IMG/VR virus record: IMGVR_UViG_2713896902_000004
Strand: one strand, 5' to 3'
Length of the DNA: 16,021 bases
Source of the DNA: a virus
Taxonomy: Duplodnaviria; Heunggongvirae; Uroviricota; Caudoviricetes
In this document: positions 1,073 through 16,021 of the stretch, piece after piece
Layout: each line of letters starts with the position of its first letter
Numbering within the stretch: the first letter of the stretch is position 1
Notes under the pieces: model-generated
Seen by the model: the letters and a program-made list of their open reading frames with translations, nothing else
Told to the model about the DNA's origin: nothing
Database searches by the model: none
Position numbers and translations under genes: made by a program

Positions 1073-1630
1073 TTAATAATTATGTGGCATTATTGGCCAA
1101 TTAACATCGGATTTGATATCGAAACTCGTACGATTTAATTGTACACGATATTTTTTTAATCTTGATAAATAAACGATTTCCTCTTCTGTAGCCATATCTA
1201 GATCTACAGCGTCTTGTAAAGGTAATATGATCTCACTTGCTACTTTGAGTAGATTTTCTTTTTCTTTGAGAAATATATTTTCTAGGTCACTAGAACTATA
1301 TTCCTTGGTGATTATTTGTTCGTTTATATATTGATATTTATCTCGAATCATTATATCTTCTGGTAATATATCCGTTTCAATAATATCAAATCCTGCAGGA
1401 TATAGTTTTGAAATGTCTGTAGCTACAGAGCATATAAACTTACTTTCAGGGTGAACACATAGTTTATATTTTTTAGTGAACATTGGGAATGACGTGTAAA
1501 AATCTAATCCATTTTCATCTATGAAGTATTGAACTTCATCTCCATAAGGTTTTTCTTCTGGATAATAGCGAGTTACTTTTGTTAATTTCATTTTGGTATT
1601 CTCATCCTGAAATGGTACGCCACGCACCAT
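1073..1630 (-). CDS. Tail fibre assembly protein (lambda Tfa / P2 gpG-like chaperone)
   Basis: C-terminal ...LLKVASEIILPLQDAVDLDMATEEEIVYLSRLKKYRVQLNRTSFDIKSDVNWPIMP matches the conserved Tfa C-terminal motif. Sits immediately 3' of the fibre gene. The start is ambiguous: the longest ORF starts at 1630 and overlaps the fibre end by 29 nt; the internal ATG at 1589-1591 (MKLTKV...) has an AGGA upstream. Strongly AT-rich. Confidence 0.85.
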   Translation of the reverse strand: MVRGVPFQDENTKMKLTKVTRYYPEEKPYGDEVQYFIDENGLDFYTSFPMFTKKYKLCVHPESKFICSVATDISKLYPAGFDIIETDILPEDIMIRDKYQYINEQIITKEYSSSDLENIFLKEKENLLKVASEIILPLQDAVDLDMATEEEIVYLSRLKKYRVQLNRTSFDIKSDVNWPIMPHNY

Positions 1631-3098
1631 TAATATTTATTTGGACTGGTTTATATCGTACGCATTCCATTTTATCACCGCCGTCAACAAATGTGATTAC
1701 GCATCCAGCGGGGGCTGAAGTAGATGACTGAACTTCTGCTCCTAATTGTATGTTTTGTATATATCGAGCGTCAGATTGAGCTTTGGTATAAATGTTCACA
1801 GTGGTTGCTTTGCTGTTAGCAAGATCAAAAGCTGCCTTCACCGCGCTTGGTGTTGCCGCTTCCGTCGTACTTGTGCTGTTCGTTGCACTATTAAGCTTCA
1901 CAACTCCTTTTTGCGTCAGTGTGGCGTCGGGGATACCAGTGATTTGTCCCCAGGCGTGGGTATGACTTGCTGGTGCAGCCGCAATAGCCTTATCCATTGC
2001 CGCCTTCACCGCGCTCGGTGTCGCAGCTTCCGTTGTGCTGGTGCTGTTTGTGGTACTGTTAAGTTTCACAACTCCTTTTTGCGTCAGCGTGGCGTCGGGG
2101 ATAGCAGTGATTTGTCCCCAGGCGTGGGTATGGCTTGCTGGTGCAGCCGCAATAGCCTTATCCATTGCCGCCTTCACCGCGCTCGGTGTTGCAGCTTCCG
2201 TCGTGCTGGTGCTGTTTGTGGTACTGTTAAGTTTCACAATTCCTTTTTGCGTCAGCGTGGCGTCGGGGATACCAGTGATTTGTCCCCAGGCGTGGGTATG
2301 GCTTGCTGGTGCAGCCGCAGTAGCCTTATCCATTGCTGCCTTCACCGCGCTCGGTGTTGCAGCTTCCGTTGTGCTGGTGCTGTTTGTGGTACTGTTAAGC
2401 TTCACAATCCCTTTCTGCGCCAGCGTACCGTCAGGGATACTGGTTATCTGATTCCAGCCATGAGTATGACTGGTGGCGGCTTTGCTATTTGCCAGGTCAT
2501 ATGCGGTTTTTACTGCTTTTGGTGTGGCCGCTTTGGTTTCATCATCGCTATTAGTTGCATTACTCAGTTGCGTGAAACCTTTCTGCGTCAGTGTTGCATC
2601 AGGATGATTTCGTGATTGCTGATGTGCTTTCAGCGTGTCATCGACATATTCCCTGGTTGCCATAACAACTGAAGGATCTATCAACAGCGTCACCACATCC
2701 GCATTTGTCACTTCCATCACTGCGCGTATAACAATTTGCTTACTGGCACCTGCAGGTAATTGTGGTTTATAGGTTTCAGGGAATTTACCAATAGCGACCA
2801 GCGTGCCGTCGGTATCCAGCAACCCAACTTCGCGAACATACCAGCCTCCAACCTCTTCGGGAATAATCGCTTCTGCGATAACCCAGGCCGGATTATCTGG
2901 CGCAATTTTTAATGTATTGAGCTGACCACGCCAGACCTCATGGACTACTTTGGTCTGGATTTCTGTCGGTTCGATATATTTACCGTTGCCATCGCCAACT
3001 ACCATAGTTTGCAGACGGATCTGTTTTTGCTCCGCCAGTGCTGAGGCAATTTGGGTTTTGCCTGCAGCAGTTAATATTGTAAAAAATTCACTTGCCAT
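1602..3098 (-). CDS. Tail fibre protein (P2 gpH / Mu S-like N-terminus, repeat-containing shaft, divergent C-terminal tip)
   Basis: N-terminus MASEFFTILTAAGKTQIASALAEQKQIRLQTMVVGDGNG...NPAWVIAEAIIPEEVGGWYVREVGLLDTDGTLVAIGKFPETYKP matches the conserved gpH-type baseplate-attachment domain. Shaft has about 4 tandem ~56-aa repeats (SHTHAWGQITGIPDATLTQKGVVKLNSTTNSTSTTEAATPSAVKAAMDKA), the motif typical of side tail fibres. Confidence 0.9.
   Translation of the reverse strand: MASEFFTILTAAGKTQIASALAEQKQIRLQTMVVGDGNGKYIEPTEIQTKVVHEVWRGQLNTLKIAPDNPAWVIAEAIIPEEVGGWYVREVGLLDTDGTLVAIGKFPETYKPQLPAGASKQIVIRAVMEVTNADVVTLLIDPSVVMATREYVDDTLKAHQQSRNHPDATLTQKGFTQLSNATNSDDETKAATPKAVKTAYDLANSKAATSHTHGWNQITSIPDGTLAQKGIVKLNSTTNSTSTTEAATPSAVKAAMDKATAAAPASHTHAWGQITGIPDATLTQKGIVKLNSTTNSTSTTEAATPSAVKAAMDKAIAAAPASHTHAWGQITAIPDATLTQKGVVKLNSTTNSTSTTEAATPSAVKAAMDKAIAAAPASHTHAWGQITGIPDATLTQKGVVKLNSATNSTSTTEAATPSAVKAAFDLANSKATTVNIYTKAQSDARYIQNIQLGAEVQSSTSAPAGCVITFVDGGDKMECVRYKPVQININGAWRTISG
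1840..2530. repeat. Tandem direct repeats, about 168-bp unit, roughly 4 near-identical copies inside the fibre gene
   Basis: Near-identical 168-bp units begin at about 1861, 2029, 2197 and 2365, with more diverged copies on either side. In frame with the fibre ORF; they also create the spurious plus-strand shadow ORFs 1746..2615 and 2035..2451. Confidence 0.85.
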
Positions 3099-3100
3099 TA

Positions 3101-3832
3101 TTACTCCGGGTATACAGACATTATTTCGGTGCTCCAGTATCCTGTACCGATTTTCATCAGTTGGGATTGTGTAAGGCGATCAGGTCGATAAGGTAGTAGT
3201 TGGATATATTCCTCTACACAATAACCTGTCGCTAAAAATATTCTTGATGATTGGCTGATACTTTCTGCAACAGGAGGCAATACTGTAATGATTTCCCCTC
3301 CTTGCATGGCACTGCCAATAACTGGTATTGAGCTTTGATTAATAAGCCAAATAACAATACTTTCCAGTTTTGAACGAACATTTTTATATTCATGAATTAA
3401 TGTGATAAGTGCATTAAATTCATCTTCATTTAACCCTTTTTCCTCTAGTGTAATATCAACCTTAAAAAAATAAGCTTTCCCGCCATATTCAAACCATTCG
3501 GTAATAGTTCCAGGCAATGAGAGTATTTCCAGTACTCGCCGTACCGCCCAAACTGTTCCTTTATATTTATGTAACTCAATGGCTTGCTTAATTAACTCAC
3601 GCTTCTCTTGTTCATCAGTAGTAAATAACCAACCTTCCAGCCCCTGAACGTGGAATTGTTCTGCAAGGGCAGGTAATGCCGAAGCATCAACCAGGTCGAC
3701 CAGGTATATCATTAATGCCGTCAGATCGAGTTGCGCAAAACGTTCGGCGGCGATATTTGCCAGAGTTGAAAAACGCTCATCGCTGGCAAGCGGCGGCGGT
3801 GGCAGCAATTTATCCATCGCTGACTCCGGCAA
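3101..3832 (-). CDS. Baseplate protein gpI-like (P2 gpI / Mu gp48 family)
   Basis: Position between the gpJ-like gene and the fibre gene, size, and overlap with the gpJ gene (23 nt). Family assigned mainly by synteny and general resemblance. Confidence 0.7.
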   Translation of the reverse strand: MPESAMDKLLPPPPLASDERFSTLANIAAERFAQLDLTALMIYLVDLVDASALPALAEQFHVQGLEGWLFTTDEQEKRELIKQAIELHKYKGTVWAVRRVLEILSLPGTITEWFEYGGKAYFFKVDITLEEKGLNEDEFNALITLIHEYKNVRSKLESIVIWLINQSSIPVIGSAMQGGEIITVLPPVAESISQSSRIFLATGYCVEEYIQLLPYRPDRLTQSQLMKIGTGYWSTEIMSVYPE

Positions 3833-4925
3833 TCGTGACGTCTATTACAGTGCATTCCGCCCATTCATGCGCCTGCAAAATACGTTTTGTAGGCATGTTC
3901 AGCACAACGTCATAGACGCCATCGACTTGTAACACTTTGATTATCTGGTTTGGCACAATGTCCTGCCCCAGATGTTTCTGCCGCTGTTGCGTCCAGAGGC
4001 TAATCGCTTTACGCGCCGCAGCCAGTGTTGTCTCCTGATCGGCGGTGGTAAACAGCGTTAGCTGCGCACGAATTTCATACGGCACCCTAAGAGCACATTT
4101 CGCACTTACTTTGTCAGTCAGCGGACGTTTTTTCTCTTTACTCACTTCTTGTTCAATTTGCGCGAGTAGCTCGGTTCCCGGCAGACCATTCAGGGTTAGC
4201 GGGTAGAGCTCGACGCAGCCTTCTGGCAACCCTTCATCTGGCCCCAGTACTGCAACGTCAATAATTGACTGGCTAACCGAAAGTGTATGAAAGCGATATG
4301 CGCCATAGCTGCCGGCATTACTGAAGCTTTCTGGCGCCAGTTGTATACGCTGGCGTAGTGCATCATCGTTCTCTTCACCGCAACCGCCGGTTGTGGGAGT
4401 CAGATTAGTCACGTTGATATCGTAATAACCGATCCTGTCAACAAGGGCGCTAATCTGTGCAGGCTGCCAGCCATTGCCCTGTTCACCTGCTGCGAGGCTG
4501 GTGGCCGGAACGGCGATATGCAAACTCCTGGCCGGAAGCAGAACATCTTCATCGGTGGCGAACATCACGCTGTCAGAGGCACTGGCCCGCGTCCCCTGGG
4601 GAATCAGGATATTGCTGGTATACGCACTGACGACCGAAAACTGCAACGTCGTTTTTGCCGATTGTGCAGGTAAACGGTGAACACCCACCAGCTCCCCTAA
4701 ATAATCCAACATTGGTGCGCGGGAATACGTGACCAGGTTTTGTTTCGCCGCTTCCTGAATGGCGATGCGCACAAGGTTTTCACGATAGGCAAACAGGTCG
4801 ATGAGTAACCGTTCGGCCTGTGCCGGATAGAGTTTTTTACCGCTGGCATCTTCGTATTGCGCAATCATCTCGCTGGTAATTTGCGCAGGATCGCGGTCAA
4901 TAAAATCGGGTTCGGCTATCGCCAT
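3810..4925 (-). CDS. Baseplate wedge protein gpJ-like (Baseplate_J / T4 gp6-like)
   Basis: 371-aa ORF directly after the gpW-like gene with overlapping junction; sequence character typical of Baseplate_J proteins; conserved V-W-J-I-H-G order. Confidence 0.8.
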   Translation of the reverse strand: MAIAEPDFIDRDPAQITSEMIAQYEDASGKKLYPAQAERLLIDLFAYRENLVRIAIQEAAKQNLVTYSRAPMLDYLGELVGVHRLPAQSAKTTLQFSVVSAYTSNILIPQGTRASASDSVMFATDEDVLLPARSLHIAVPATSLAAGEQGNGWQPAQISALVDRIGYYDINVTNLTPTTGGCGEENDDALRQRIQLAPESFSNAGSYGAYRFHTLSVSQSIIDVAVLGPDEGLPEGCVELYPLTLNGLPGTELLAQIEQEVSKEKKRPLTDKVSAKCALRVPYEIRAQLTLFTTADQETTLAAARKAISLWTQQRQKHLGQDIVPNQIIKVLQVDGVYDVVLNMPTKRILQAHEWAECTVIDVTIAGVSDG

Positions 4926-5275
4926 AACACCTCCGTTGAGTTGATTACGCCGTCAGCGGCGCGCCATTGCACACGTAACGTCAGATGTTCACCGTCGATT
5001 ATCGGTGCTACCTTCAGCAACCGACATCGCGGTTCCCACTGGCGGATGGCTTCCACCGACTCCCGTACCACATGCGGGATTGCCCGCTCGATGGGGTAAT
5101 CGATGTAGTGCCACAAGTTGCTGCCAAACAGCGGTCTGTGGGGATCACTGCCGCGCGGCGTGCGCAGAATGATGTGTATTGCCTGGTGAATATCATCCAG
5201 TCCGCAGACGTATTCTTCAGGCCGCTGCAAGGCGGGTTGCCAGTGCAGCGTTGAGGGGCGTGTTTTTGTGTTCAT
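4916..5275 (-). CDS. Baseplate wedge protein gpW-like (GPW/gp25 family)
   Basis: 119 aa; ...DDIHQAIHIILRTPRGSDPHRPLFGSNLWHYIDYPIERAIPHVVRESVEAIRQWEPRCRLLKV... resembles the gp25/GPW family; sits between the V-like and J-like genes. Confidence 0.8.
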   Translation of the reverse strand: MNTKTRPSTLHWQPALQRPEEYVCGLDDIHQAIHIILRTPRGSDPHRPLFGSNLWHYIDYPIERAIPHVVRESVEAIRQWEPRCRLLKVAPIIDGEHLTLRVQWRAADGVINSTEVLWR

Positions 5276-5336
5276 GTGCTTATTTTCGCCCTGAACGGAC
5301 AGTGGGGATATTAAAGCGATTTAGAAAACTGATTGA

Positions 5337-5368
5337 TTAAAAAGAGAAAACCCGCCATCAGGCGGGTT
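5337..5368 (-). terminator. Intrinsic-terminator-like hairpin between the gpV-like and gpW-like genes
   Basis: On the minus strand, 4 nt after the gpV stop: AACCCGCC-TGAT-GGCGGGTT (8-bp GC-rich stem, 4-nt loop) followed by TTTTCTCTTTTT. Confidence 0.5.
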
Positions 5369-5373
5369 AAAAG

Positions 5374-6033
5374 CTAGTGTGAATGGTGATTTGAGTTACC
5401 ACCGCTATCCTGCAATGTGCCGCTGGCCTGAACGTTACCAATCACATTGACATTGCCAGTTATCGTGGCGGCGTTACCGATGCCTCCACTTCCTGCCATG
5501 CCACCCAGCCAGGTGAGTTTTTTCATTACTGTGACGTTACCAGTAAAGGTGCTCATGGGCGCATCTACCGTCACTGTCGCCGCTTTAATATCGACGGTAT
5601 CGGAAGTCACGGTGACCTGTTGGGCTTTAACCTCAACGTTGGGTGATGTCAGGTTAGTATGGTCAATAACCTCAATCACGATTTTCTCAATACCGCCGTT
5701 AATCGTAAGCTGGTGTGTGCTGCGGTCATATTCAAACGCTGCGCCATCAGAAAACTGGACGTAACGTTTATCTCGCGAGGCCACAGGCGCGGTGTCAACC
5801 GTAGAATAAACGGCCCCAAGTACCACGCCATCTTCGCCGTTGTCGTCCAGCAGAACTTCCACCTGCTCACCCATATCCGGTAGCCAGTAGTCTTTATTGT
5901 CCTGGGAATTACGTTGAAGTACCGCAAGCCAGTTACTCTTCAGATTGTCGCACTCTGGCAGTGTGACTCGCACCCGAACGCTGGTTTCGTCAATATCGCT
6001 GATAATCCCCGTTTGCCGGGTTACTCCCTTCAT
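5374..6033 (-). CDS. Baseplate central spike protein gpV-like (P2 gpV / Mu gp45 family)
   Basis: 219 aa; N-terminal OB-fold-like region (…NGEDGVVLGAVYS…) and a C-terminal Gly/Val/Asn-rich beta-helix-like region (GNVTVMKK…GNVNVIGNVQASGTL) typical of spike proteins; follows the gpD-like hub gene. Confidence 0.8.
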   Translation of the reverse strand: MKGVTRQTGIISDIDETSVRVRVTLPECDNLKSNWLAVLQRNSQDNKDYWLPDMGEQVEVLLDDNGEDGVVLGAVYSTVDTAPVASRDKRYVQFSDGAAFEYDRSTHQLTINGGIEKIVIEVIDHTNLTSPNVEVKAQQVTVTSDTVDIKAATVTVDAPMSTFTGNVTVMKKLTWLGGMAGSGGIGNAATITGNVNVIGNVQASGTLQDSGGNSNHHSH

Positions 6034-6042
6034 AGTGCCTCC

Positions 6043-7083
6043 TTACTGGCTGGTTGCTGGCCCGCGCGAAACGTCGATTTCAGTGGTATAGCCGCTGCGC
6101 ACAAAACTGTGAGTAGATTTATCAATCAGCCATTGTCCAGAAAGAATACCAAAATCAATGAGTTCGATTTTATTGCCTGCTGTCAGTTCCGGGCAGCCCA
6201 TCATCCTGAGTGTTCCGGTTTGCTGATATTCGTTGTGGCTGTCGAGTGCAGCGTTGGCCTTTGCCTGTGCCGCGCCAACATCCGTCGCCCGGCTGTTGAG
6301 TTTCAACGTGTCGGCACTGGTGCCGACTCCACGGGCTGACGGTTTTTGCTGGCTGTCGTGAGTGTAGATAACCAGTTCTTTTTTCTTACTATTTTGATGC
6401 TGTACGGTGGCGTTCTTGTAGATGCGATTAATGGTGTCTTTGAAGGTAAAGTGCGAAACCTCTTTACGGTCGATGGTTTTCACTGGCGCCAGGCAGCGTA
6501 GTGTCGGCAGATGTGAAAAAATCAGCTCTTTTGTCGTCACTTTCACGGCATAGCCATATTCGCTGGCCAGACGCTTGAGAAATCCAACATCGGTTTCGCC
6601 GTACTGTGTCACCCGGTCAATCGCCAGTGGCTCGATTTTGCCCACCAGCTTCAGACCGTGAGTTTGCGCGATACGACTGGCGATGGCCGAAAGCGTCGTT
6701 TCTTCAAAGCCCTGACTGTTACGGGTACGCAGCGCCTGATTGACGGAAGTGGCAATGCCATCAATATTTACCGTGGAAGGTGGTGCTGAAATATCAATTT
6801 TATCAATAACATACTGACCGCAATCGAGGAGCGTCTCCCCCTGATAACCCATATGTAGCGCCAGCGTATCGCCTTTGCCGGGATACCACTCTTTTATCCA
6901 ACGTCCATCGGTGTCATCCAGTGTAATGGCGATGGTATCTGACTCGTTTTTGATGCTGTCGTGGTAACTGATGCTGGTGACATAGGGCGTGATGTCATAA
7001 GTGATATCTTTATGCCCATACCAAAGGGTAAAAATGGGCGCGAGTGTGGCAAAGACGCCACCAGATACGCTTATCTCAGCCAT
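6043..7083 (-). CDS. Baseplate hub protein gpD-like (P2 late control gene D / Mu gp44 / VgrG-N family)
   Basis: 346 aa with the family character (…SDTIAITLDDTDGRW…PGKGDTLALHMGYQGETLLDCGQYVIDKIDISAPP…); conserved position after the gpX-like gene. Confidence 0.8.
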   Translation of the reverse strand: MAEISVSGGVFATLAPIFTLWYGHKDITYDITPYVTSISYHDSIKNESDTIAITLDDTDGRWIKEWYPGKGDTLALHMGYQGETLLDCGQYVIDKIDISAPPSTVNIDGIATSVNQALRTRNSQGFEETTLSAIASRIAQTHGLKLVGKIEPLAIDRVTQYGETDVGFLKRLASEYGYAVKVTTKELIFSHLPTLRCLAPVKTIDRKEVSHFTFKDTINRIYKNATVQHQNSKKKELVIYTHDSQQKPSARGVGTSADTLKLNSRATDVGAAQAKANAALDSHNEYQQTGTLRMMGCPELTAGNKIELIDFGILSGQWLIDKSTHSFVRSGYTTEIDVSRGPATSQ

Positions 7084-7283
7084 GGTGGTATCTCCGATAA
7101 GGTTTTGTTGACGGAAATGACCGGAATAATGAGTTGAATACCGGAAGGCAGTACCGGGTAAATGGCGACATGTGGATTGGCGGCGATGATGCGTTCATAA
7201 GCCAGCGCATCGCCGTAGTAATACCATGCCAGATTATCCCAGCGTTCGCCGTCGGTGGTGATATGTTCAAGGTATCGCATCAC
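7071..7283 (-). CDS. Tail protein X-like (P2 gpX, LysM-like baseplate protein)
   Basis: 70 aa; TTDGERWDNLAWYYYGDALAYERIIAANPHVAIYPVLPSGIQLIIP parallels the gpX pattern (T..GDTLD.I..RYYG…VL.ANP…LP.G..V.LP). ATGA overlap with the upstream gene. Confidence 0.7.
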   Translation of the reverse strand: MMRYLEHITTDGERWDNLAWYYYGDALAYERIIAANPHVAIYPVLPSGIQLIIPVISVNKTLSEIPPWLR

Positions 7284-8233
7284 CAGCTCCTCGTAATGGT
7301 CGCGGCAGCAAGCTGGCTCACTGCGGGAGTGGTTTGTTGTACCGTTGTTCGTGCCTGCTCAACCAACGTTGCGGCTTTATCGAACGTCGCTTCGGCGATG
7401 TCGTTGGTAATGTCGTCGAAAAGCGCCTGAGCATGGTCAACCAGCGTGCTGGCGTCTTTGGCGCAGTCCCGGATACCTGGCATGTTACCCAGTAAAGCGT
7501 TAATCTGCGCCGATAACGCTTTTGGGAGTCCTGCCAGCGTTTGCAGATCCATGGGCTGTTTAAACAGGGTTTCGATGGCGTCGATAGTCTTTTTCAACGA
7601 CGTAATTATCTTTTCACACTTTTCTTTTAACGCTTTGGCCTCTTTAACCAGTGCTTTCACTTTTGCCACCGTTTTTTTAATATCTTCAATGGCTTGAGTC
7701 AGCTCATCGAGCATCTCTTTGGCCTTACGCATACCTTCTTCAATGGCGTTCAATATCTGATCAAACCAGGACTCCACCATGTCTGGAAAATCGCTCGCCT
7801 TTTCGTCAATATTCGGGTCTTGGGTAGTAATTGCCGGGGGCAAGAGTGGATTTTTAGGATCACCGGTGTACTCCTGGAGCGACATTGTTCCGCTTTGAGC
7901 AATCACATTGCCCCAGGGATCGGTGTGCTGGTGGGTGGCGGTTAGCTCCGTAATCACAAACCAGCCGCGATAATCGCCATTGCCAAACACCAGAGCCATC
8001 GCTTTGTGGGCAAGCATGCCTTCACGCAGTCGATTCAGCTCTGTTGTGGGTTGGCAAAACTGGCTGTGCAAGGAAAATTCCAGTGCCAGCATATCCAGCT
8101 TATCGCCAATAAACTGCACGCCGGGTTTGCCTTCTATACGGGCATGTGTGGCGTAGTCCACGCCCATTGTGCTTTTAAAGCCGTCCCAGAATGTGACAAC
8201 CTTAAATTCAATCTCTCCTAAAACGGCATACAT
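7280..8233 (-). CDS. gpU-like tail/baseplate protein with a long alpha-helical, coiled-coil-like C-terminal extension
   Basis: The first ~120 aa loosely resemble P2 gpU-type tail proteins, and the gene sits in the gpU position (TMP-U-X-D). The C-terminal ~180 aa are rich in A/K/E/L heptad-like sequence. Start overlaps the TMP stop by 1 nt. Confidence 0.5.
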   Translation of the reverse strand: MYAVLGEIEFKVVTFWDGFKSTMGVDYATHARIEGKPGVQFIGDKLDMLALEFSLHSQFCQPTTELNRLREGMLAHKAMALVFGNGDYRGWFVITELTATHQHTDPWGNVIAQSGTMSLQEYTGDPKNPLLPPAITTQDPNIDEKASDFPDMVESWFDQILNAIEEGMRKAKEMLDELTQAIEDIKKTVAKVKALVKEAKALKEKCEKIITSLKKTIDAIETLFKQPMDLQTLAGLPKALSAQINALLGNMPGIRDCAKDASTLVDHAQALFDDITNDIAEATFDKAATLVEQARTTVQQTTPAVSQLAAATITRSW

Positions 8234-10608
8234 CAGGCATACCCCCGGCGCTGTTGTTGCGCCATTACGTCGTTAATCATTCTTTCCAGTTCGCGTTTAC
8301 TTATCGTCAACACGTTCTGAATGTCTTTAGTGGTGTTTTGTCCGTTACTCTGCACGGTAATTTGTGGCGAAAAATTCACCTGAACTTTTCCAGAGGAACG
8401 GGAGGGTAGCGTCGCCGGTTTGGTTACAGATTTACCAGGTAAAGAGGCCGATGCGGGTTTGGCTGCTGTATTTTTTGCCGCTGGTGTCGATGGCGACGTT
8501 GTCGTTTTACTGGATGGCGCGAGTTGTTTGCCCACAGGAGGCGTTAAAATCGCTCCGGCAACGCCTGGAACAACGGTCGTGGGGGAGATTGATGCGGTAT
8601 TCGTCGTGCTTGTAACAGCCGTAGCCGATCCTTCTGTGCTAATACCCATCGTGGTTTTTAGCCAGTCCGGTAAGGCGTTTTTGACCTGATCAATAATGCC
8701 TTTCAGAGCGGGGAAAGCATTCATTATGCCGTCAACCAGACTGCCCAGAAGATTGCTGCCGAACTCGCTAAAACTTGCAGGCATCTCGATACCAAACCAA
8801 TTCATCACACTGGAAAAGGCGCTGTAGAACAACTCCAGCGGCGACCAGTCGAGAATTAACCGGCAAATCCCTGCAATGCCGCCGTCAAAGGCCGTGGTGA
8901 TACGTTGCCAGATGGCGGAAAAGAATCTGGAGATAGGTTCCCAGTGGCGATAGATCAGATAAGCAGCGCCCGCAATCGCGGTGATGACCAGACCAATGGG
9001 ATTCATCAATAAAACTCTACCCAACCAGAAGACGGTCTGACCTGCCAGTTTCAATGCGCCAATCAGGCCACGGCCAAGCAGTTGCGTTAGCCATTTTGCG
9101 CCGTTATATAATGACTTAACCGCTGATAGCATCTTACTTGCCGCGCCTGTGAGCGTCAGACTTGCCCTGACTTTCAGGAAGATATCGACCAGACGAATAA
9201 ACGGCGAGGCGATGACGTTCGCGCCCAGCTTTAAAACATTCAGTGCGCCGTTAAACAGCCAAATCGCTCCGACGATTTTCGCAATGTTTTGCACCAGCGC
9301 CGGGTGTTCACGTAGCCAGGCGCTGAACTGGCGAATCACCGGAGTAAGGCTTTGCGCCAACTCGCCAATCAGCGGCATTAATTGCAAGCCAATGCTGAGC
9401 CATAAATCATTTAACGCCAGTTGTAACGTTTTAGTTTGTTCAATGGGCGAGGCCATCTGCACAGAAAAATCGTTGTCAATCATATTCTTACCGCTGTCTT
9501 GCATGGCGGAGGCTTTTAACTGGCGATACTCTTCCATATTCGCCAGCACAGGTGCCAGGAATTCCACTGTTTGCGCATCGCCGAACATTTCGCCCAGATT
9601 AAATTGCGTCACCATCGATTGCAGTGCGTTGCTGCGAGCAGATAAATCTTCAATTTGCATGGTGCGTTTGAAGGTGTCGAGGATCGCCGGATTCATCTTC
9701 TCAAGTTGCGTTTGCACGATATGAATCATGGCTTCGCTAACACCCATGCCGTTTTGCTGATGTTCAAGCAGAGAGCCTTGCAGATCGACGCCCTGGCTGA
9801 CGAACCAGTTATCGGTTTTTTTCGAAAAGATGGTTTGCAGAAAGTGGTCGAAATTCTCCGCCGCCACACTGGCGCTGGCACCATTTTTCATTGCGATCTG
9901 CATTGTGGCGGTCAGTTCAGCCATACCTTCTAAACCCTGTGCGCCAGTTTTAACTGCAAATTTGTCTATCCACTGCGCTTGCCCGGCAACGGTAGGCCCA
10001 CCGTTTTTGCTAATGCCGTACATCATGTTTTGCGCGGCGTGGAAATTTTCTGGCGCAATATTCAGTCGATCATGAGTCGCGAGCGCGGCATTCGCCCATG
10101 TTTCAGCACTTTCGCGCGTGGTGGTGGCTGCTTTGGCGATCTCCGGCATATAACGGTTGAGATCCTGCATCGACGACAAATTACCTTCGATTAGCACCTG
10201 GGCTGCGTTCTGTAAGGTGGTCTGCTGCTGGTTAAAATCCATACTCCAGTCGCGCAGATTAAGGCTGAGTGTCTCGCGGGTTGTATCATTCATCCCACCT
10301 TTGGTCGCCAAATTGACCATGTTGTCCTGAAACTCATACGGCAACTTCCAGTCAGGGACTTCAACATTGAATACTTTGCTAAATTGCCCGGCAAATGTTT
10401 GGGTTTTCTCCATCAGATCAGCGCGGTTTCGGCTATTTTCCTCCAGGCGGAGAGCGGAATCGGCAAGTTGCTGCGTTAGTTTGATTACTGCCGCTTGCTG
10501 AGAAGAGAGTGCTAACAATGTTCTGGCGTTGAGTGAGCCGTAACGGGCTATTGCCTGCGTCAACGTCTCATTACGCGTCTGAAGCTGGGTAATAATATCG
10601 TTGGCCAA
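8233..10608 (-). CDS. Tail tape measure protein
   Basis: 791 aa, largest gene of the module, directly after the chaperone gene; alpha-helical N-terminal half, several hydrophobic segments in the middle, Ser/Thr/Pro-rich low-complexity C-terminal region. Annotated start is TTG with AAGAGA upstream. Confidence 0.8.
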   Translation of the reverse strand: MANDIITQLQTRNETLTQAIARYGSLNARTLLALSSQQAAVIKLTQQLADSALRLEENSRNRADLMEKTQTFAGQFSKVFNVEVPDWKLPYEFQDNMVNLATKGGMNDTTRETLSLNLRDWSMDFNQQQTTLQNAAQVLIEGNLSSMQDLNRYMPEIAKAATTTRESAETWANAALATHDRLNIAPENFHAAQNMMYGISKNGGPTVAGQAQWIDKFAVKTGAQGLEGMAELTATMQIAMKNGASASVAAENFDHFLQTIFSKKTDNWFVSQGVDLQGSLLEHQQNGMGVSEAMIHIVQTQLEKMNPAILDTFKRTMQIEDLSARSNALQSMVTQFNLGEMFGDAQTVEFLAPVLANMEEYRQLKASAMQDSGKNMIDNDFSVQMASPIEQTKTLQLALNDLWLSIGLQLMPLIGELAQSLTPVIRQFSAWLREHPALVQNIAKIVGAIWLFNGALNVLKLGANVIASPFIRLVDIFLKVRASLTLTGAASKMLSAVKSLYNGAKWLTQLLGRGLIGALKLAGQTVFWLGRVLLMNPIGLVITAIAGAAYLIYRHWEPISRFFSAIWQRITTAFDGGIAGICRLILDWSPLELFYSAFSSVMNWFGIEMPASFSEFGSNLLGSLVDGIMNAFPALKGIIDQVKNALPDWLKTTMGISTEGSATAVTSTTNTASISPTTVVPGVAGAILTPPVGKQLAPSSKTTTSPSTPAAKNTAAKPASASLPGKSVTKPATLPSRSSGKVQVNFSPQITVQSNGQNTTKDIQNVLTISKRELERMINDVMAQQQRRGYA

Positions 10609-10708
10609 AATTGTTTCTCTTATAGATTGGTGATGGCCCGCTGGTTAGTTTTCTGAAAAATGGGCTGGGAAGAAATAAACCTGGCGAGCTTTGAAGAACT
10701 CGCAGACA

Positions 10709-10930
10709 TCAGGTCTGCGAGTCATATTCGATTTTTATTTGAGCGCTGGCTTCATCCAGCCAGTGACTAAAGTCATCTATCGTGAGCGAGTCAATCTCAC
10801 TGGGTGGAAAGCGAAACCATCTCGCCAGTAGCGCCATTGCCTGCCATAGCAAGGGGGGATTCTGTAGCCACGGTAAGCATGGATTGAAATCGTTTCTGCA
10901 ACGCCTGGTAATCCAGCAAATCCATTTCAG
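10709..10930 (-). other. Open +1-frame window overlapping the 3' end of the chaperone gene; candidate programmed-frameshift extension (gpE'-like)
   Basis: Relative to the chaperone frame, the +1 frame is open from 10930 to a TGA at 10709-10711, running about 29 codons past the chaperone stop (…FPPSEIDSLTIDDFSHWLDEASAQIKIEYDSQT). A C6 run (10853-10858; TCC CCC CTT in frame 0, CCC CCC TTG in +1) is a possible slip site. The -1 frame closes 8 codons after the chaperone stop. Confidence 0.35.
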
Positions 10931-11114
10931 CTAAATCTTCTGGTACCAGCCCGGTCATCGCTGCCATTAGCGGTTCATCCCATTCTTCCGGCTTTTCGCT
11001 GACCCGGCGTGCATTACGCATATCTTTGACTTTCAGGCGACGTAATTGTAGCGTGTCGATATTATTTCCTGCTGCCGACGTAAAGGGAAACTGTAAGATA
11101 TAATGCTCTTTCAT
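10797..11114 (-). CDS. Tail assembly chaperone (P2 gpE-like)
   Basis: 105 aa between the tube and tape-measure genes; …LQLRRLKVKDMRNARRV…LMAAMTGLVPEDLAEMDLLDYQALQKRF… resembles the gpE family; AAGGA Shine-Dalgarno upstream. Confidence 0.7.
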   Translation of the reverse strand: MKEHYILQFPFTSAAGNNIDTLQLRRLKVKDMRNARRVSEKPEEWDEPLMAAMTGLVPEDLAEMDLLDYQALQKRFQSMLTVATESPLAMAGNGATGEMVSLSTQ

Positions 11115-11140
11115 TTTGTATCCTTATTTATTTTTCGGAG

Positions 11141-11160
11141 TTCGGGGCCGTAGCCCCGAA
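11141..11160 (-). other. GC-rich intercistronic stem-loop between the tube and chaperone genes
   Basis: TTCGGGGC-CGTA-GCCCCGAA, perfect 8-bp stem with 4-nt loop, starting 4 nt after the tube stop; no U-tract follows on the minus strand. Confidence 0.4.
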
Positions 11161-11164
11161 TAAC

Positions 11165-11689
11165 TTAGCCACCGATGTTATTGCGATAGGTACTTAATTG
11201 ATCCACGCCGTTAACGCGGAAAATATTCGCCATATAATCCAGTTCAAGCAGCGTTTCACCATCGACTACTTGTTTAATATAAGTGCAGCCAAAGGCGCTG
11301 CTGAATTCCGGGTTTTCATTCTGTTTAAATGTGCCCAGTGGATTTTTTTTAAACATCACGGTTAAATGTGTGACTAACGCTAATTGATTCGCTTTCCCCT
11401 GAGAGTTATAACAATCGATACTGGAGCGACACTGTAATGCTACAGCCTGCCACGGGTTTGCCGTTTTACGCATTACGTCCTGGTAAAAGGAGTTCCATTT
11501 AATTTCCCCCTCCAGTTTATCGAAACCAGCCGGGAGTTCTATTTTACCCACCATGCCCAGTGCTTTATGTTCCTGCATAATTAAACTGACATCTGGCAAT
11601 TTAATTTCTGTTGCACGGCCTAAAAGATTATTACCATCGAGATAAATATTGGCGTTGGTAATACGGTTAATTTGAATTTTTCCAGCCAT
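11165..11689 (-). CDS. Tail tube protein (P2 FII-like)
   Basis: 174 aa immediately after the sheath gene with a 1-nt overlap; size and sequence character of contractile-tail tube proteins. Confidence 0.8.
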   Translation of the reverse strand: MAGKIQINRITNANIYLDGNNLLGRATEIKLPDVSLIMQEHKALGMVGKIELPAGFDKLEGEIKWNSFYQDVMRKTANPWQAVALQCRSSIDCYNSQGKANQLALVTHLTVMFKKNPLGTFKQNENPEFSSAFGCTYIKQVVDGETLLELDYMANIFRVNGVDQLSTYRNNIGG

Positions 11690-13116
11690 TAGCGATTGCT
11701 CTCCAGAGAGACTAAATATTCAGAGGTAATTTCAGTTTCAAACGTCAGACGTTCCAGCGGCGGCGGTGGGGTAAATTTATAGCTGAGCAATAAATGCCCG
11801 GCACTGAGTTCAGCCGGTGAATTTCGCGCCGGATCGTACCAGCACTCAAAGCCAAGCAGTGCGCCGTCGGCAATCAGTTTTCGGCCCCAGGTATTTACCG
11901 ATTCGGTCAGCGCGTCAATCAGTGCCTGATTGATCGGCATATCAATATACTGTTGACTGAAATAACGGATTGACTCATTAATTACATCGCCTGTCCGGCG
12001 AACGTTTTCAAAGTTACGCATATGAGTCACGGTTGGCCATGCCGCTGTGCGGTTGCCCCACAGGCGCAGACCAGAACCATAACTATTGAAAATAGTGGTA
12101 ATACCGTTTTCGTTGAGCTGATTCACTTCGCTTTGTGGATCATCAATCATTGCGGAAAGCGAACGTTCGATACCGGTAATACCCTGAATTTCCTGGTTTG
12201 AGTTGCTCCACCAGAAACCTTTTTCGAGGTCTACTTTGGCACGTAGCCCGGCAGCGCGCGAAGAGAGAGGTTCAAGAATTTCCTGGTTAGTGATGCCATC
12301 GTAAACTTTGACGTGTGGGTAGCATAAACGTGCACGATCAGAGCTGGTATTGAAGTTGATTGCGCCTTGCGAACCGCGTCCAGCCAATACCTGCTGGAAT
12401 GTAGTCCCAATTGGGGCATCAATGTAGGTAATCGCACCGAGTTTTTCCGCTTGTGCAATCAGCTCGGTAGTCACTGATTTTTGCGTACAAAAAACGGGTG
12501 CCAGCAGAATTTTGGCGTAGAAACCATACAAGTTATAAGTGTCCTGAAGGAGCCTCATCCCCGTGCGATCGCCTGCGGTATTAACGGCCCCGATAATATC
12601 GGCTGCGGTGACCTTTGTAGGGTCAACATAGGTATAAGTCGCGTAAACCTTTGCTCCTGCCGCAATTTCAGTTCCTGTACGGGTAATAACGCCGTCAGCG
12701 GCATTAACGCTGTATGATGTATTTTTGTATGTAGTGGAACTGATACTTGCTCTTAGCGTTACCGAACTTACCCCCGGATGAGTTAATTTAGCTTTATCGT
12801 CACTATTGAACGTAATGGTTTCATTGGTAATGTGTAGTCCATGTTTTACTGGATCCAGCACATTAATTACCACCACTGTACCGGCACCGTGATCATAAAT
12901 CGCCTTCAGCGCCTGCGGGATCGTAAAGTTAGCCTGAGTCGATCCAAACTGTGCCGCGTCACTTTCAGAAAGGCACAGCGTCGGTTGGTTTACCGGGCCA
13001 CAGGGAGCGGTACCGATTAAAGCGATTACAGCAGATTTTACTGCTTTTACCGGACGCGGGCCGGTTTCAATTTCAATGGTTTCTACACCGTGCAGATAAT
13101 TAGCTGCCATGTACAA
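11689..13116 (-). CDS. Tail sheath protein
   Basis: 475 aa; C-terminal conserved sheath motif (…GSGLRLWGNRTAAWP…); followed by tube gene with overlapping stop/start. Confidence 0.9.
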   Translation of the reverse strand: MYMAANYLHGVETIEIETGPRPVKAVKSAVIALIGTAPCGPVNQPTLCLSESDAAQFGSTQANFTIPQALKAIYDHGAGTVVVINVLDPVKHGLHITNETITFNSDDKAKLTHPGVSSVTLRASISSTTYKNTSYSVNAADGVITRTGTEIAAGAKVYATYTYVDPTKVTAADIIGAVNTAGDRTGMRLLQDTYNLYGFYAKILLAPVFCTQKSVTTELIAQAEKLGAITYIDAPIGTTFQQVLAGRGSQGAINFNTSSDRARLCYPHVKVYDGITNQEILEPLSSRAAGLRAKVDLEKGFWWSNSNQEIQGITGIERSLSAMIDDPQSEVNQLNENGITTIFNSYGSGLRLWGNRTAAWPTVTHMRNFENVRRTGDVINESIRYFSQQYIDMPINQALIDALTESVNTWGRKLIADGALLGFECWYDPARNSPAELSAGHLLLSYKFTPPPPLERLTFETEITSEYLVSLESNR

Positions 13117-13297
13117 TTTCCTCTACGTTATTTTGTTCTTCCTGGGGAATGATGAGAATCAAGTGATTTCGGGCAATCATGGTCATAACCCACTCATTGT
13201 CTTCTGGCAGATCAATTTCACTGTTCGGCCATAATAAGATTTCTTGACCGTCGGCAAGGGTGACGCCGCTTGCCGGACCGTTGTAGATATATTTCAT
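13100..13297 (-). CDS. Small conserved phage protein preceding the sheath gene (Mu gp38/DUF2635-like by position)
   Basis: 65 aa; ATGA overlap with the upstream gene and 17-nt overlap with the sheath start; assignment by position and size only. Confidence 0.35.
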   Translation of the reverse strand: MKYIYNGPASGVTLADGQEILLWPNSEIDLPEDNEWVMTMIARNHLILIIPQEEQNNVEEIVHGS

Positions 13298-13749
13298 TCA
13301 GTTTCCTCGTAATTAACTTCAGTAAGCAGGGGAAGATCCGTGCTGTCCTGTTCAGCGATAAACAGCGAGCTGGTCGCCATTTCCAGGATGTAGCGGCAGA
13401 AACCGTCGCTCTCACCCGTATTAATTTCTTTTTCAAGCCAAATAAGATGATCGCAATCAGGAGGCTGAAGGCCTCCCAATGCGCTGCGTATGTGATCAAG
13501 TGCGTTTAACGCATCACAATTTTTGCCAACAATAACGGTGGCGGTTAAGCGGAGTATTTGCTGTTGTACAATGGCATCACTACTTTCGGGCGTGGTGAAG
13601 ACAGAACCGCTATAATTAATAATCACCGTAATCTGTTGTGTCTGTGGAATATATTTTTGGGCATCCGTAGATGAAATGAATATGTCCATTTCAGGATGCC
13701 GATCACGTAATCTGACCACGACATAATTCATTACAGATAAAATTTTCAT
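13294..13749 (-). CDS. Putative tail completion/terminator protein (Mu gp37-like by position)
   Basis: 151 aa, first gene of the tail block after the terminator at 13855-13891; coupled to the next gene by an ATGA overlap; assignment by synteny. Confidence 0.4.
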   Translation of the reverse strand: MKILSVMNYVVVRLRDRHPEMDIFISSTDAQKYIPQTQQITVIINYSGSVFTTPESSDAIVQQQILRLTATVIVGKNCDALNALDHIRSALGGLQPPDCDHLIWLEKEINTGESDGFCRYILEMATSSLFIAEQDSTDLPLLTEVNYEETE

Positions 13750-13854
13750 ATGAGGTGTACCTTAATTACCGCTCACTTCGTTATCGTTGAAATGTATTCT
13801 GAAGCAGTGAGAGTGAAGAATCTTTTAATGTGATTTAGAGAAAAAATTGAATGG

Positions 13855-13891
13855 TTATAAAAAATCCCCACACTTACGTAAAGGTGGGGAT
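13855..13891 (-). terminator. Intrinsic terminator after the lysis cassette
   Basis: On the minus strand, 4 nt after the stop of the 104-aa gene: ATCCCCAC…GTGGGGAT (8-bp stem with a partly self-pairing 12-nt loop) followed by TTTTTTATAA. Confidence 0.55.
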
Positions 13892-13895
13892 GTAT

Positions 13896-14210
13896 TTAAT
13901 AACTGCCACGTTGTAATAACTCTATTTTGCTATATAAGGCATCCAGCTTTGCTTCTAATACTGCTTGTCCACGAAGATAATCCTCTCTGCGGACATAATA
14001 CAGTGGAAGTTCGGCACGAAATTCGAGAAATTCTCTTTCCAGTTTCGACCAGCTTGTTTCTGATTCCCTGCGGGCATTTTCCAGGGACTCAAAACGCTCA
14101 TTAAGTCTTTTTTCAATTTGCGCTAACAGCAATTTTCCGGCAGCAAACATTAATCCAACGAATGAAAGCATAAAGGAGATCACTTCCCAAAAATCGATAC
14201 TGAGTTTCAT
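13896..14210 (-). CDS. Membrane-anchored coiled-coil protein, possible i-spanin (Rz-like) or lysis accessory protein
   Basis: 104 aa; N-terminal hydrophobic helix (ISFMLSFVGLMFAAGKLLLAQI) followed by a charged helical region; immediately after the transglycosylase gene. Confidence 0.4.
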   Translation of the reverse strand: MKLSIDFWEVISFMLSFVGLMFAAGKLLLAQIEKRLNERFESLENARRESETSWSKLEREFLEFRAELPLYYVRREDYLRGQAVLEAKLDALYSKIELLQRGSY

Positions 14211-14222
14211 CGGCCCCTCTGA

Positions 14223-14828
14223 TTAGTGAAGACAGCTTGCCTGTCCCCAGAGTAAGTAGCGGGCGGCGTGTTGATAGAGAATCATCTTCGGATAGTGACG
14301 ATTTTCTCGCCAGTTTGCGGCGCTGCGCCCGGCGTTGACTTGCTCAACATGACCAAACCAGATGGCGGCATTTAACCCTTTTGTTGTCGCCAGTTTTTTA
14401 TCCCGGTTAATCCAACCCTGACCACCGTTATAGGCGCTTAGAGTAAACGCCATACGTTGACAATCATTTTTTGCAGAGATGTTGTTCCATAAATGCTGGT
14501 CGTACTGTACCAACGCCCGGATTGCCCAGGTTGGGTTATACGGTTTGTTTTCATGTAGCTGTGGATACAGTTGGCTTATCCATGTCGCTGTGGCAGGCAT
14601 AAATTGCGCCATACCTTGTGCGCCAACGGGGGAACGTACCATTGGCTGCCAGGCGGACTCCTGGTGTAATTGCCCGGCAAAGTCAGCCACAGGAGCGTTC
14701 AGTCCCCAGACTTCTCGGGCGGTACGAATCAATTCATTTCTCCATGCCAGAGAGGCTTGTGGTGGTTCAGACGCATTAAGCGGGAAAAGAACGAAAATAA
14801 TCATAGGCGCGATATATTTTAGCCACAT
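14223..14828 (-). CDS. Lytic transglycosylase (SLT-domain endolysin candidate) with N-terminal signal peptide
   Basis: SLT catalytic motifs: …QLHQESAWQ… (catalytic Glu-Ser), …GAQGMAQFMPATA…, …AYNGGQGW…. The longest ORF runs to 14927 but the likely start is the ATG at 14826-14828 (MWLKYIAPMIIFVLFPLNA, Sec-type signal peptide), 2 nt after the upstream stop. Confidence 0.85.
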   Translation of the reverse strand: MWLKYIAPMIIFVLFPLNASEPPQASLAWRNELIRTAREVWGLNAPVADFAGQLHQESAWQPMVRSPVGAQGMAQFMPATATWISQLYPQLHENKPYNPTWAIRALVQYDQHLWNNISAKNDCQRMAFTLSAYNGGQGWINRDKKLATTKGLNAAIWFGHVEQVNAGRSAANWRENRHYPKMILYQHAARYLLWGQASCLH

Positions 14829-14830
14829 CA

Positions 14831-15118
14831 CTATAGCCCTAACGCGACGGAAAGGCAGACTGCAGCCACGATGATGGCGCGACGAATCATTGCCGCTGCG
14901 TAGCAACGCGGTTCCTTCCTGGGGCAAAAAAAGTCAGGCCGTGCCCAGGGGAACAAACTACGATCGAGCCAGTATCCCAGCACTGCGGAAAGTGAAACCA
15001 GGCTTAGTTTATAAATGACGACCGGAATTTGTGCTGAAGATGTCCAGCCGATCAATGCAATCAGAGCAATGGCTGCAGCCAGCCAACCGGAAAGACGGGG
15101 AAAAGTGATTTTTTTCAT
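14831..15118 (-). CDS. Holin-like small membrane protein
   Basis: 95 aa with 2-3 predicted transmembrane helices; strong AGGAG 8 nt upstream of the ATG; first gene of the lysis cassette, tightly coupled to the transglycosylase gene. Function by position only. Confidence 0.4.
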   Translation of the reverse strand: MKKITFPRLSGWLAAAIALIALIGWTSSAQIPVVIYKLSLVSLSAVLGYWLDRSLFPWARPDFFCPRKEPRCYAAAMIRRAIIVAAVCLSVALGL

Positions 15119-15434
15119 ACGATATCTCCTGATAAGTGAGATACCAGTGTCTGCTTATCTCTTTGCTGAAGAATGAAAAAAGCTTTAATAAATAACTTTA
15201 AAAAATGTGTTCTCTTCGAATTAACATGTTCGCCAATTAATCTCCCAACTCAAAATAGAGAACTAAGGATAAAATGGCTGCCAGTTAGATAAATCCTGCG
15301 TTATGTGTAATGAAGGGGATGACATATTGCAATCATGGTCGTTACTTATTTGATTTTTAAAGTTTGTTTAAAAAAATCCTCGACTGTGAGGGAAACGAGC
15401 TTTTTGAAAAGTAGGCGATAAAAATGATAAATAG

Positions 15435-15454
15435 CACTGTATATGTATACAGTA
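15435..15454. promoter_or_regulatory. LexA (SOS) box
   Basis: CACTGTATATGTATACAGTA matches the E. coli LexA consensus TACTGTATATATATACAGTA at 18/20 with intact CTGT-N8-ACAG. Overlaps a possible minus-strand promoter (-35 TTTACA, 16-nt spacer, -10 TACAGT) and lies just downstream of a possible plus-strand promoter (-35 TTGAAA 15404-15409). Confidence 0.6.
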
Positions 15455-15673
15455 TCGTGTAAAATGGCACTCCTGTTGATAAGACATGTAATGAAAATAA
15501 TATATTTGTTTTGTGAATTTATAATTCGTTTTAATTTTTATTGCATATACATTGTGATTATTTATTTGCGTGTTGAATGTATTGAAAAGCAGTAATTGCA
15601 CCAACTTAGCGGATATCCGTGGTGTAACTCACATCAGAGTCCATACAGGGTGCAAGATATATGGAGATGAAAA

Positions 15674-16021
15674 ATGATACAAAAAGCAAAAGAGATGACC
15701 CGGACACCGGAGATCATTAACGATTTGGCGTTTCATGCTTCGCAAGTTCTGATTGAGAGCATCAATCTGGATAGCTCATCTGCGGAAAATGTTGGCTATG
15801 CCATTGCCGATCGCATGATGCGAAACTGGGGCGGACAAAGCATTTATTTTCCAAAAGGAATCGCCAGGCGAGCCTCGGAGCGGGACTATCAAATCTATAG
15901 CGAGTGCGATGGGCGCAACTACGCCGAATTAGCGAAGAAATATAATCTGACGCTGCAATGGATTTATAAGATAGTAAAACGCGTGCATACAGAAAAGCAG
16001 CAACAGCACCGTATGCAGTAG
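15674..16021 (+). CDS. Mor/C-family transcriptional activator (Mu middle-operon-regulator-like)
   Basis: 115 aa; …NWGGQSIYFPKGIARRASERDYQIYSECDGRNYAELAKKYNLTLQWIYKIVKRV… parallels the Mor C-terminal region (GGQ.Y.P.G…RD..I…GRN..EL…Y..T….YK..R) including the HTH; GGAG 7 nt upstream of the ATG; divergent from the lysis/tail block. Confidence 0.65.
   Translation: MIQKAKEMTRTPEIINDLAFHASQVLIESINLDSSSAENVGYAIADRMMRNWGGQSIYFPKGIARRASERDYQIYSECDGRNYAELAKKYNLTLQWIYKIVKRVHTEKQQQHRMQ

Follow-up and report, generated by a model that had tools for sequence, protein, structure and literature searches.

Frameshifted tail assembly chaperones are textbook matter. According to the logic established for G and GT of phage lambda, a gene located upstream of that of the tape measure gives rise to two products which share their N-terminus and are formed at a fixed ratio (PMC5009743). 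Besides the -1 direction, shifts of -2, as in phage Mu, and of +1 are known and documented for tail chaperone genes, and UUU_Y is a known site of +1 shifting, documented as such in bacteria (PMC5009743). Following Atkins et al., the shift site of YopN-TyeA apparently belongs to this type as well, while the cassette of influenza PA-X reads UCC_UUU_CGU (PMC5009743). In a training set derived from SEA-PHAGES, 350 of 2,718 slippery-site cases are forward shifts (PMC10274946). Hence, the statement of the first-pass annotation of the present locus that a +1 event would be unusual is overstated in the light of both sources. Here we describe a P2 gpE-like chaperone gene for which, on comparative grounds, we consider it likely that a +1 slip of tRNA-Phe at a UUU_C sequence provides, in addition to the 105-residue E protein, an E-E' fusion of 134 residues.

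Gene cluster and reading frames

The window, by which we mean the whole analysed stretch of 16,021 nucleotides, harbours, as judged by its list of open reading frames and by Pfam, genes of a contractile tail and of lysis and no head genes. Its features relevant to the present analysis are:

15674 to window end, plus strand: Mor-family activator, divergently transcribed
15118..14831, minus strand: holin
14927..14223, minus strand: SLT lytic transglycosylase
between the SLT lytic transglycosylase and Gp37, minus strand: ORF of 104 amino acids
13749..13294, minus strand: Gp37
between Gp37 and the sheath, minus strand: ORF of 65 amino acids
13116..11689, minus strand: sheath
11689..11165, minus strand: tail tube gene, 174 amino acids (PF04985 Phage_tube, 189.9 bits), presumed partner of the E' domain
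11114..10797, minus strand: tail assembly chaperone (P2 gpE-like), 105 amino acids, product of the 0 frame, ATG start, TGA stop
10608..8233, minus strand: tape-measure gene, 791 amino acids (PF10145), presumed client of the chaperone

The tape-measure gene, whose E. coli orthologues carry the annotation 'phage tail tape measure protein', is followed by U, X, D, V, W, J, I and tail fibre genes. All tail genes of the window are intact according to the ORF list and Pfam, and the headless cluster extends over positions 1073-16021. The order sheath, tube, chaperone, overlapping ORF, tape measure places the chaperone between tube and tape measure, i.e. at the position characteristic of frameshifted chaperone pairs. 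Related clusters with about 92-94% identity at the DNA level are present in 196 of 5,426 complete E. coli genomes, and homologues of the cluster are found in 11 Pectobacterium species. In E. coli IAI39 (L249) the orthologous cluster is flanked by yjbD/rluF and lysC and lacks head and integrase genes. The chaperone protein of the window is 100% identical to that of one IMG/VR contig (L039). The gene content thus comprises contractile-tail and lysis genes at a fixed chromosomal site and is devoid of head, packaging and replication genes, as in R-type tailocins. Judged by its genes, the window is a cluster resembling R-type tailocins, comes from a genome of the Escherichia type and appears to be related to the carotovoricin of Pectobacterium.

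The chaperone matches PF10109 (Phage_TAC_7) over residues 6-80 with 69.7 bits at a gathering cutoff of 25 and, in addition, PHROG 166 ('tail protein'). Translation of the remaining frames recovers the geometry given by the first-pass annotation, which had reported a +1 frame open for about 74 codons, about 29 of them beyond the chaperone stop, and a -1 frame closed soon after it. On the minus strand the +1 ORF stays open for about 74 codons (10930 to 10712), is terminated at 10711..10709, overlaps the last approximately 44 codons of the chaperone and extends about 29 codons past its stop, while the -1 frame is indeed closed a few codons past this stop. For the fusion we compute a length of 134-135 amino acids, in agreement with the previously proposed value of about 135. 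The elements located at and downstream of the end of the chaperone gene are:

10886..10889, minus strand: proposed +1 shift site UUU_C, consisting of the Phe76 codon TTT (10889..10887) and C 10886, context CAG AAA CGA TTT CAA TCC
10853..10858, minus strand: C6 run (G6 on the plus strand), read TCC CCC CTT in the 0 frame and CCC CCC in the +1 frame
10709..10885, minus strand: E' extension in the +1 frame after the putative slip, 58 codons, NPCLPWLQNPPLLWQAMALLARWFRFPPSEIDSLTIDDFSHWLDEASAQIKIEYDSQT, plus stop 10711..10709
10697..10723, minus strand: 11-bp hairpin ACTCGCAGAC-CTGAT-GTCTGCGAGT around the E' stop codon, perfect over 10-11 bp with the stop in its loop

The +1 peptide (...ALLARWFRFPPSEIDSLTIDDFSHWLDEASAQIKIEY...) had been said to read like real protein and had been proposed for comparison with sequences of the gpE' type. 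BLASTP aligns the peptide to the core of P2 E+E' with E=7e-4 (33% over 30 amino acids), PHROG 8286 is matched at 2e-20, and PF06528 (Phage_P2_GpE) is reached with 18.3 bits (E=0.0016), which is below its gathering cutoff of 23. An HMM of the E' core matches the +1 frame of the window at an E-value of about 1e-23. Within this core MADVAVIFHWPPSELYPMSLTELITWREKA of the window stands against the homologous MALLARWFRFPPSEIDSLTIDDFSHWLDEA of P2. None of the NCBIfam models was hit, and a comparison of the fusion with solved structures gave no meaningful match. Judged by sequence similarity, the +1 peptide and the E' extension of P2 are homologous.

The hairpin at the end of the extension deserves a separate remark. 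RNAalifold assigns -19 kcal/mol and one compensatory pair to it in the alignment of the window with E. coli and Salmonella. No T-run follows the hairpin, which therefore does not represent a typical intrinsic terminator. It might modulate the expression of the tape-measure gene located 90 nt downstream.

Conservation of the +1 frame among related loci

In total, 243 related loci were gathered, among them 24 from bacterial genomes, 209 from IMG/VR contigs and 7 from cultured phages including BcepMu, PhiKM, KP12, Ralstonia YO107_2, Pseudomonas Bise, Komp_PAO1_1 and Pasteurella AFS-2018a. The frame of E' relative to the chaperone was assigned by means of the E' core HMM. Of these loci, 205 have the core in the +1 frame and 29 in the -1 frame; in two it is fused in frame to the chaperone, and in seven it was not found. 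The +1-type loci include tailocin-like clusters of Enterobacterales, carotovoricin loci of Pectobacterium, BcepMu, PhiKM and phages of Ralstonia and Pseudomonas, so that the +1 arrangement along with a conserved peptide is present in many genera. On sequence grounds the overlap exceeds by far what would be expected by chance. The claim that the chaperone bears an extension of the +1 frameshift type is thus borne out by 205 of 243 loci. Conservation among related loci had also been proposed as a check of two individual elements, one of which passed it: the overlapping frame is retained (205 of 243), whereas the C6 run recurs in L039 and L040 only.

To which frame the selection applies can be read from the nucleotide diversity of 90 distinct sequences. 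Upstream of Phe76 the mean diversity at 0-frame codon positions 1, 2 and 3 amounts to 0.25, 0.18 and 0.43, respectively. In the overlap, starting about six codons downstream of the TTT, the corresponding values are 0.39, 0.29 and 0.21, and past the chaperone stop they are 0.49, 0.24 and 0.21. The same switch is visible among the enterobacterial and Pectobacterium loci, where substitutions hit 0-frame third positions before chaperone codon ~80 and, from codon ~82 onwards, 0-frame first positions, which are the wobble positions of the +1 frame. Substitutions in the overlap are synonymous in the +1 frame while leading to exchanges among Ala, Ser, Thr and Pro in the 0 frame. Since the substitution pattern switches to +1-frame wobble after Phe76, the +1 frame must be regarded as being under selection. 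From these data, it is under purifying selection, including in bona fide phages. The same switch in diversity indicates that the last ~25 residues of the 105-residue product are essentially unconstrained and overprinted by E'. In summary, an ORF in another frame which has no conserved start of its own is kept among the relatives.

Several individual loci are worth mentioning. In the GenBank record of BcepMu (L032, AY539836 24602-25363) the E' ORF is annotated as gp42 ('lambda G-like'), and gp43, located in the third frame, as a slippage product. Our alignment suggests gp41 and gp42 to be an E/E' pair joined by a +1 shift at TCC TTT CGC, the sequence which BcepMu-type loci have at the site discussed below. 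In two phage-like loci, one from Erwinia tracheiphila (L020) and the other an IMG/VR contig (L110), E continues in frame into the C-terminal portion of E' (...GEVVPLPAGEIDAL...). At this point L020 reads GCC GGG GAG ATT where the related phage PhiKM reads GCC GGG GGA GAT TGA, pointing to a change from G5 to G4. Either such fusions are a genuine alternative to the overlapping frame, or they go back to an error in a homopolymer.

Position of the proposed frameshift

In all 205 +1-type loci an in-register TTT followed by a pyrimidine is present within the interval permitted for the shift. Exactly one TTT_Y occurs in 201 of them, while the remaining four contain TTT TTT C. Among 23 lineage representatives, obtained as clusters at 70% identity, the Phe76 codon is TTT in 23 cases and TTC in none, the subsequent base being C in 22 cases and T in one. 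For comparison, the codon of the invariant Asp located eight codons upstream is GAT in 13 and GAC in 10 of these representatives. The TTT is retained even in loci of 55-68% G+C in which only about 4-25% of the Phe codons are TTT; multiplication of these background fractions over eight deep clusters results in about 10^-5. Phe76 is, at the same time, a conserved E residue of the +1-type lineages, which accounts for the first two T's of the codon but not for the third one.

The boundaries of the interval are set by stop codons in different lineages. In L035, L038 and L232-243 the +1 frame opens only three codons before the TTT. In L235 (ATG TTT CGT TCT TAA) a 0-frame stop is located two codons after it, in L194, L198 and L206 five to seven codons and in phage Bise ten codons after it. 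This stop-based bounding presumes one common site across lineages. If the site is positionally conserved, the shift consequently has to take place within about -3 to +2 codons of the TTT. Within this interval UUU_C is, as far as can be read from the sequences, the only one to allow cognate re-pairing, as tRNA-Phe (anticodon GAA) reads both UUU and UUC. For a -2 shift at the TTT, which we also considered, the sequence renders cognate re-pairing impossible. We infer the exact site within the window element from these comparative bounds; the substitution data of this element alone would fit any site between 10889 and about 10870. The five +1-frame residues directly following the TTT are not conserved, which fits a linker.

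The 29 loci of the -1 type lack TTT_Y at this position without exception and instead contain Leu, Val, Met or Ile codons or TTT G. All of them have an in-register G_GGA_AAG and/or A_AAG_GGA/G near the chaperone stop. A sub-branch of the E/E' family made up of phages of the Pasteurella/Neisseria type (L037, L168-L197) uses the -1 frame, and in it G_GGA_AAG, often overlapping with A_AAG_GGA, is found 2-12 codons from the stop. The conserved shift-prone sequence of the +1-type loci is TTT_C/T, which is no classical X_XXY_YYZ heptamer. It consists of an in-frame UUU and a pyrimidine and is followed by an open +1 frame on which selection acts.

The surroundings of the site were searched for stimulatory elements. 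Among 80 distinct sequences no conserved RNA structure acting as a downstream stimulator is apparent (RNAalifold -0.7 kcal/mol), and downstream folds of the window itself are not significant with z of -1 to -2 (-1.2 to -2.0). In the 23 lineage representatives there is neither an upstream SD-like motif nor any other nucleotide conserved beyond codon constraints. The 0-frame codon following the TTT is CAA, which is not rare. The tetranucleotide TTTC is very common, occurring 206 times in the window. The E' motif WFRF (window 10807-10816, minus strand), encoded by TGG TTT CGC TTT CCA, comprises two further UUU_C in register with the +1 frame. Because TTTC is that frequent and present in register even within E', UUU_C alone is insufficient for a high or specific rate: it cannot give high-level shifting, or else some ribosomes leave the E' frame again. 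The efficiency of the shift is probably low.

From these observations the following course of events would result. Most ribosomes would remain in the 0 frame and produce the gpE-like chaperone of 105 amino acids. In a minority, the peptidyl-tRNA-Phe (anticodon GAA) placed on the UUU of Phe76 would slip forward by one base and re-pair with the overlapping UUC (mRNA CGA UUU CAA; 10889..10886), upon which translation would continue in the +1 frame up to the stop at 10711..10709. The resulting fusion of 134 amino acids would consist of E residues 1-76 followed by NPCLPWLQNPP...EIDSLTIDDFSHWLDEASAQIKIEYDSQT, and its predicted tryptic junction peptide is FNPCLPWLQNPPLLWQAMALLAR. By analogy to lambda G/GT and P2 E/E' (PMC5009743), the shared N-terminal E part would bind or coat the tape-measure protein, recruitment of the tube protein would fall to the E' domain, and both products would be made at a fixed ratio for the assembly of the tail, here a tailocin-like one. 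The shift at this site, its efficiency and the roles of both products are what we infer from sequence comparison.

The first-pass annotation had proposed that tRNA-Pro could slip at the C6 run, which lies about 30 bases downstream of UUU_C. There, tRNA-Pro on CCC would slip either by +1, leading to 134 amino acids (...ESP-LLWQ...), or by -2, leading to 135 amino acids (...ESPP-LLWQ...). The junction would read FQSMLTVATESP(P)LLWQAMALLAR, with FQSMLTVATESPLLWQAMALLAR as the peptide predicted for the +1 and FQSMLTVATESPPLLWQAMALLAR for the -2 event. CCC_C is a known +1-prone motif. Re-pairing at the run is perfect in both directions, which makes it a formal analogue of the verified -2 site CGG GGG C of Mu. 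Moreover, the run lies inside the overlap of the window, exactly at a conserved Pro codon of the +1 frame, where it encodes Pro86-Pro87 of the fusion. Yet, E. coli orthologues with a DNA identity of about 92-94% lack the run, as do all other lineages. The homologous position reads TCC TCC CCA in E. coli and CCC ACA GCA in the Salmonella orthologue; other lineages have TCC GCA, GCC GGC or TCC GGG and close relatives also TCC GCC ACT. Of all loci fetched, solely L039 (C6) and L040 (C7) have this run in common with the window. What is conserved of the run is its first +1-frame Pro codon, which is CCN with all four third bases occurring. Hence, although C6 permits the re-pairing which characterises a homopolymer of the Mu -2 type, it is absent from orthologues and other lineages. 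Furthermore, the signs of selection for the +1 frame, an invariant Trp of this frame among them, set in about four codons upstream of the run. In Symbiopectobacterium, Conchiformibius, phage Bise, L194, L198, L206 and L235 the 0 frame is terminated at or before the position homologous to C6, so that in these lineages the shift has to occur upstream of it. A database protein in which E and E' are fused in frame (P0008, with C5 in place of C6) seems to speak for this position, but it results from a sequencing error. As a conserved programmed site the run is ruled out by the orthologue alignment and the 243 loci; the claim that it is the slip site is not sustained, and we consider it unlikely that the shift of the window element takes place there. 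The run is confined to one lineage and could add some slippage, though no more than a secondary and adventitious one.

The proteins P0008, P0010, P0030 and P0007, all in-frame 'fusions', stem from assemblies with many broken tail genes and were discarded as sequencing or assembly errors. Compared to the window, the contig of P0008 lacks exactly three nucleotides, each from a homopolymer, and through two of these losses the tube and the tape-measure gene are disrupted. The window contains an A8 run (~11350) in the tube gene and an A7 run (~9822) in the tape-measure gene, that is, inside essential tail genes. The Logan assembly L028, which represents nearly the same element, bears 1-nt deletions at the A8, A7 and C6 runs, giving rise to false gene breaks and to the false fusion P0008.

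It appears highly improbable that E' is a separate small protein translated without any frameshift from a start of its own, either TTG 10852 or ATG ~10837 (MALLARWF...). An ORF of 47 amino acids does exist at 10852..10709, the in-frame ATG is preceded by GGCAGG, and E' has been annotated as a stand-alone ORF in BcepMu (gp42) and Komp_PAO1_1 (CDS0016), as it is in PHROG 8286. These starts, however, are not conserved, the Met position being occupied by Gln in Pectobacterium and by Glu in Symbiopectobacterium, and the conservation of the +1 frame reaches upstream of every candidate start. In addition, E+E' of P2 carries the annotation of a fusion by -1 frameshift, and the invariant TTT_C of the +1-type as well as the canonical heptamers of the -1-type loci make sense only with frameshifting. 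Scarcely credible, finally, is that the +1 frame is accessed by slippage of RNA polymerase, for instance at C6, or that the overlap has lost its function and persists as a remnant of a prophage undergoing decay: homopolymers are present and the cluster is a headless prophage-like element, but these homopolymers are short and lack conservation, strong purifying selection acts on the +1 frame across 205 loci, bona fide phages included, and no tail gene of the window is broken.

A +1 slip at the UUU_C of Phe76 appears to have gone unrecognised, as a bare site used by most members of the P2 E/E' family, in the records and papers covered here; an earlier description may exist. E' is unannotated in the two E. 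coli RefSeq records examined in detail, and PHROGs lists it (PHROG 8286) under 'unknown function'. In IAI39 the locus tags ECIAI39_RS22255 to RS22265 skip RS22260 exactly at the unannotated gap of 190 nt which holds E'; a small ORF may once have been annotated in this gap and dropped later on. Recognition of the proposed fusion would correct the annotation of 205 phage and tailocin loci of the +1 type. If the recoding devices of the P2 E/E' family are interchangeable in the way considered below, the UUU_C group could be a large family of programmed +1 frameshifts at UUU_C that operate in bacteria naturally and with no stimulator. Its 205 natural contexts would be a resource for finding out what tunes low-level +1 slippage. 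The proposed shift would also concern the engineering of R-type tailocins (carotovoricin-like, E. coli and Salmonella clusters), in which both chaperone products would be needed in the right ratio: if the shift depends on UUU_C, changing Phe76 from TTT to TTC in the course of recoding or codon optimisation would silently abolish assembly.

Comparison with known systems

At the level of the gene cluster, the window resembles carotovoricin and other R-type tailocins in having holin, lytic transglycosylase, sheath, tube, assembly protein, tape measure, baseplate and fibre genes and no head genes. Its gene content agrees with the published description of carotovoricin (PMC13195805). The word 'frameshift' does not occur in that paper (PMC13195805).

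With respect to the putative shift site, the closest counterparts are the UUU_Y systems Yersinia YopN-TyeA, influenza A PA-X and the activator of a Mesorhizobium ICE. In them, as proposed for the window, tRNA-Phe slips by +1 on a UUU codon whose next base is a pyrimidine, and no large stimulator is obvious (PMC5009743). The site TCC TTT CGC of many relatives even matches the influenza PA-X cassette UCC_UUU_CGU. These systems, however, involve other genes and another biology, and in the window the site is followed by CAA and not by a rare codon for Arg.

Among the tail chaperones, gp41 of Mu resembles the chaperone of the window in belonging to PF10109, in being located between tube and tape measure and in having its extension in the +1 reading frame. 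In contrast to the conserved UUU_C of the window, Mu makes use of a verified -2 shift on a G5 run (CGG GGG CGA), and its extension is not visibly E'-like. The -1 shift of lambda gpG/gpGT takes place at G_GGA_AAG; while direction and type of site differ from those of the window, the same heptamer is present in the -1-type members of the E/E' family.

P2 gpE/gpE+E' is most similar. As in the window, the pair is situated between tube (FII) and tape measure (T), E belongs to PF10109, and the fusions are of comparable size (142 amino acids in P2, 134 predicted for the window). The annotated -1 site of P2, T_TTT_TTG (GGT TTT TTG, F84-L85), which likewise comprises a UUU Phe codon, aligns only three to four residues from Phe76. 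The direction of the shift, however, is opposite (-1 in P2, +1 in the window), and the window has no heptamer. Also, the 0 frame of the window continues for ~29 codons past the shift, whereas P2 E ends six codons past its site. Whether a single chaperone family of the P2 E/E' type employs interchangeable recoding devices at essentially the same codon we regard as evenly balanced. These devices would be a -1 shift at T_TTT_TTG in P2, a -1 shift at G_GGA_AAG in phages of the Pasteurella/Neisseria type, and, in more than 200 phages resembling BcepMu and tailocin clusters of enterobacteria and Pectobacterium, a +1 shift at a bare UUU_C. The family would then allow -1 and +1 devices to be compared, as they occur in nature, at the same junction.
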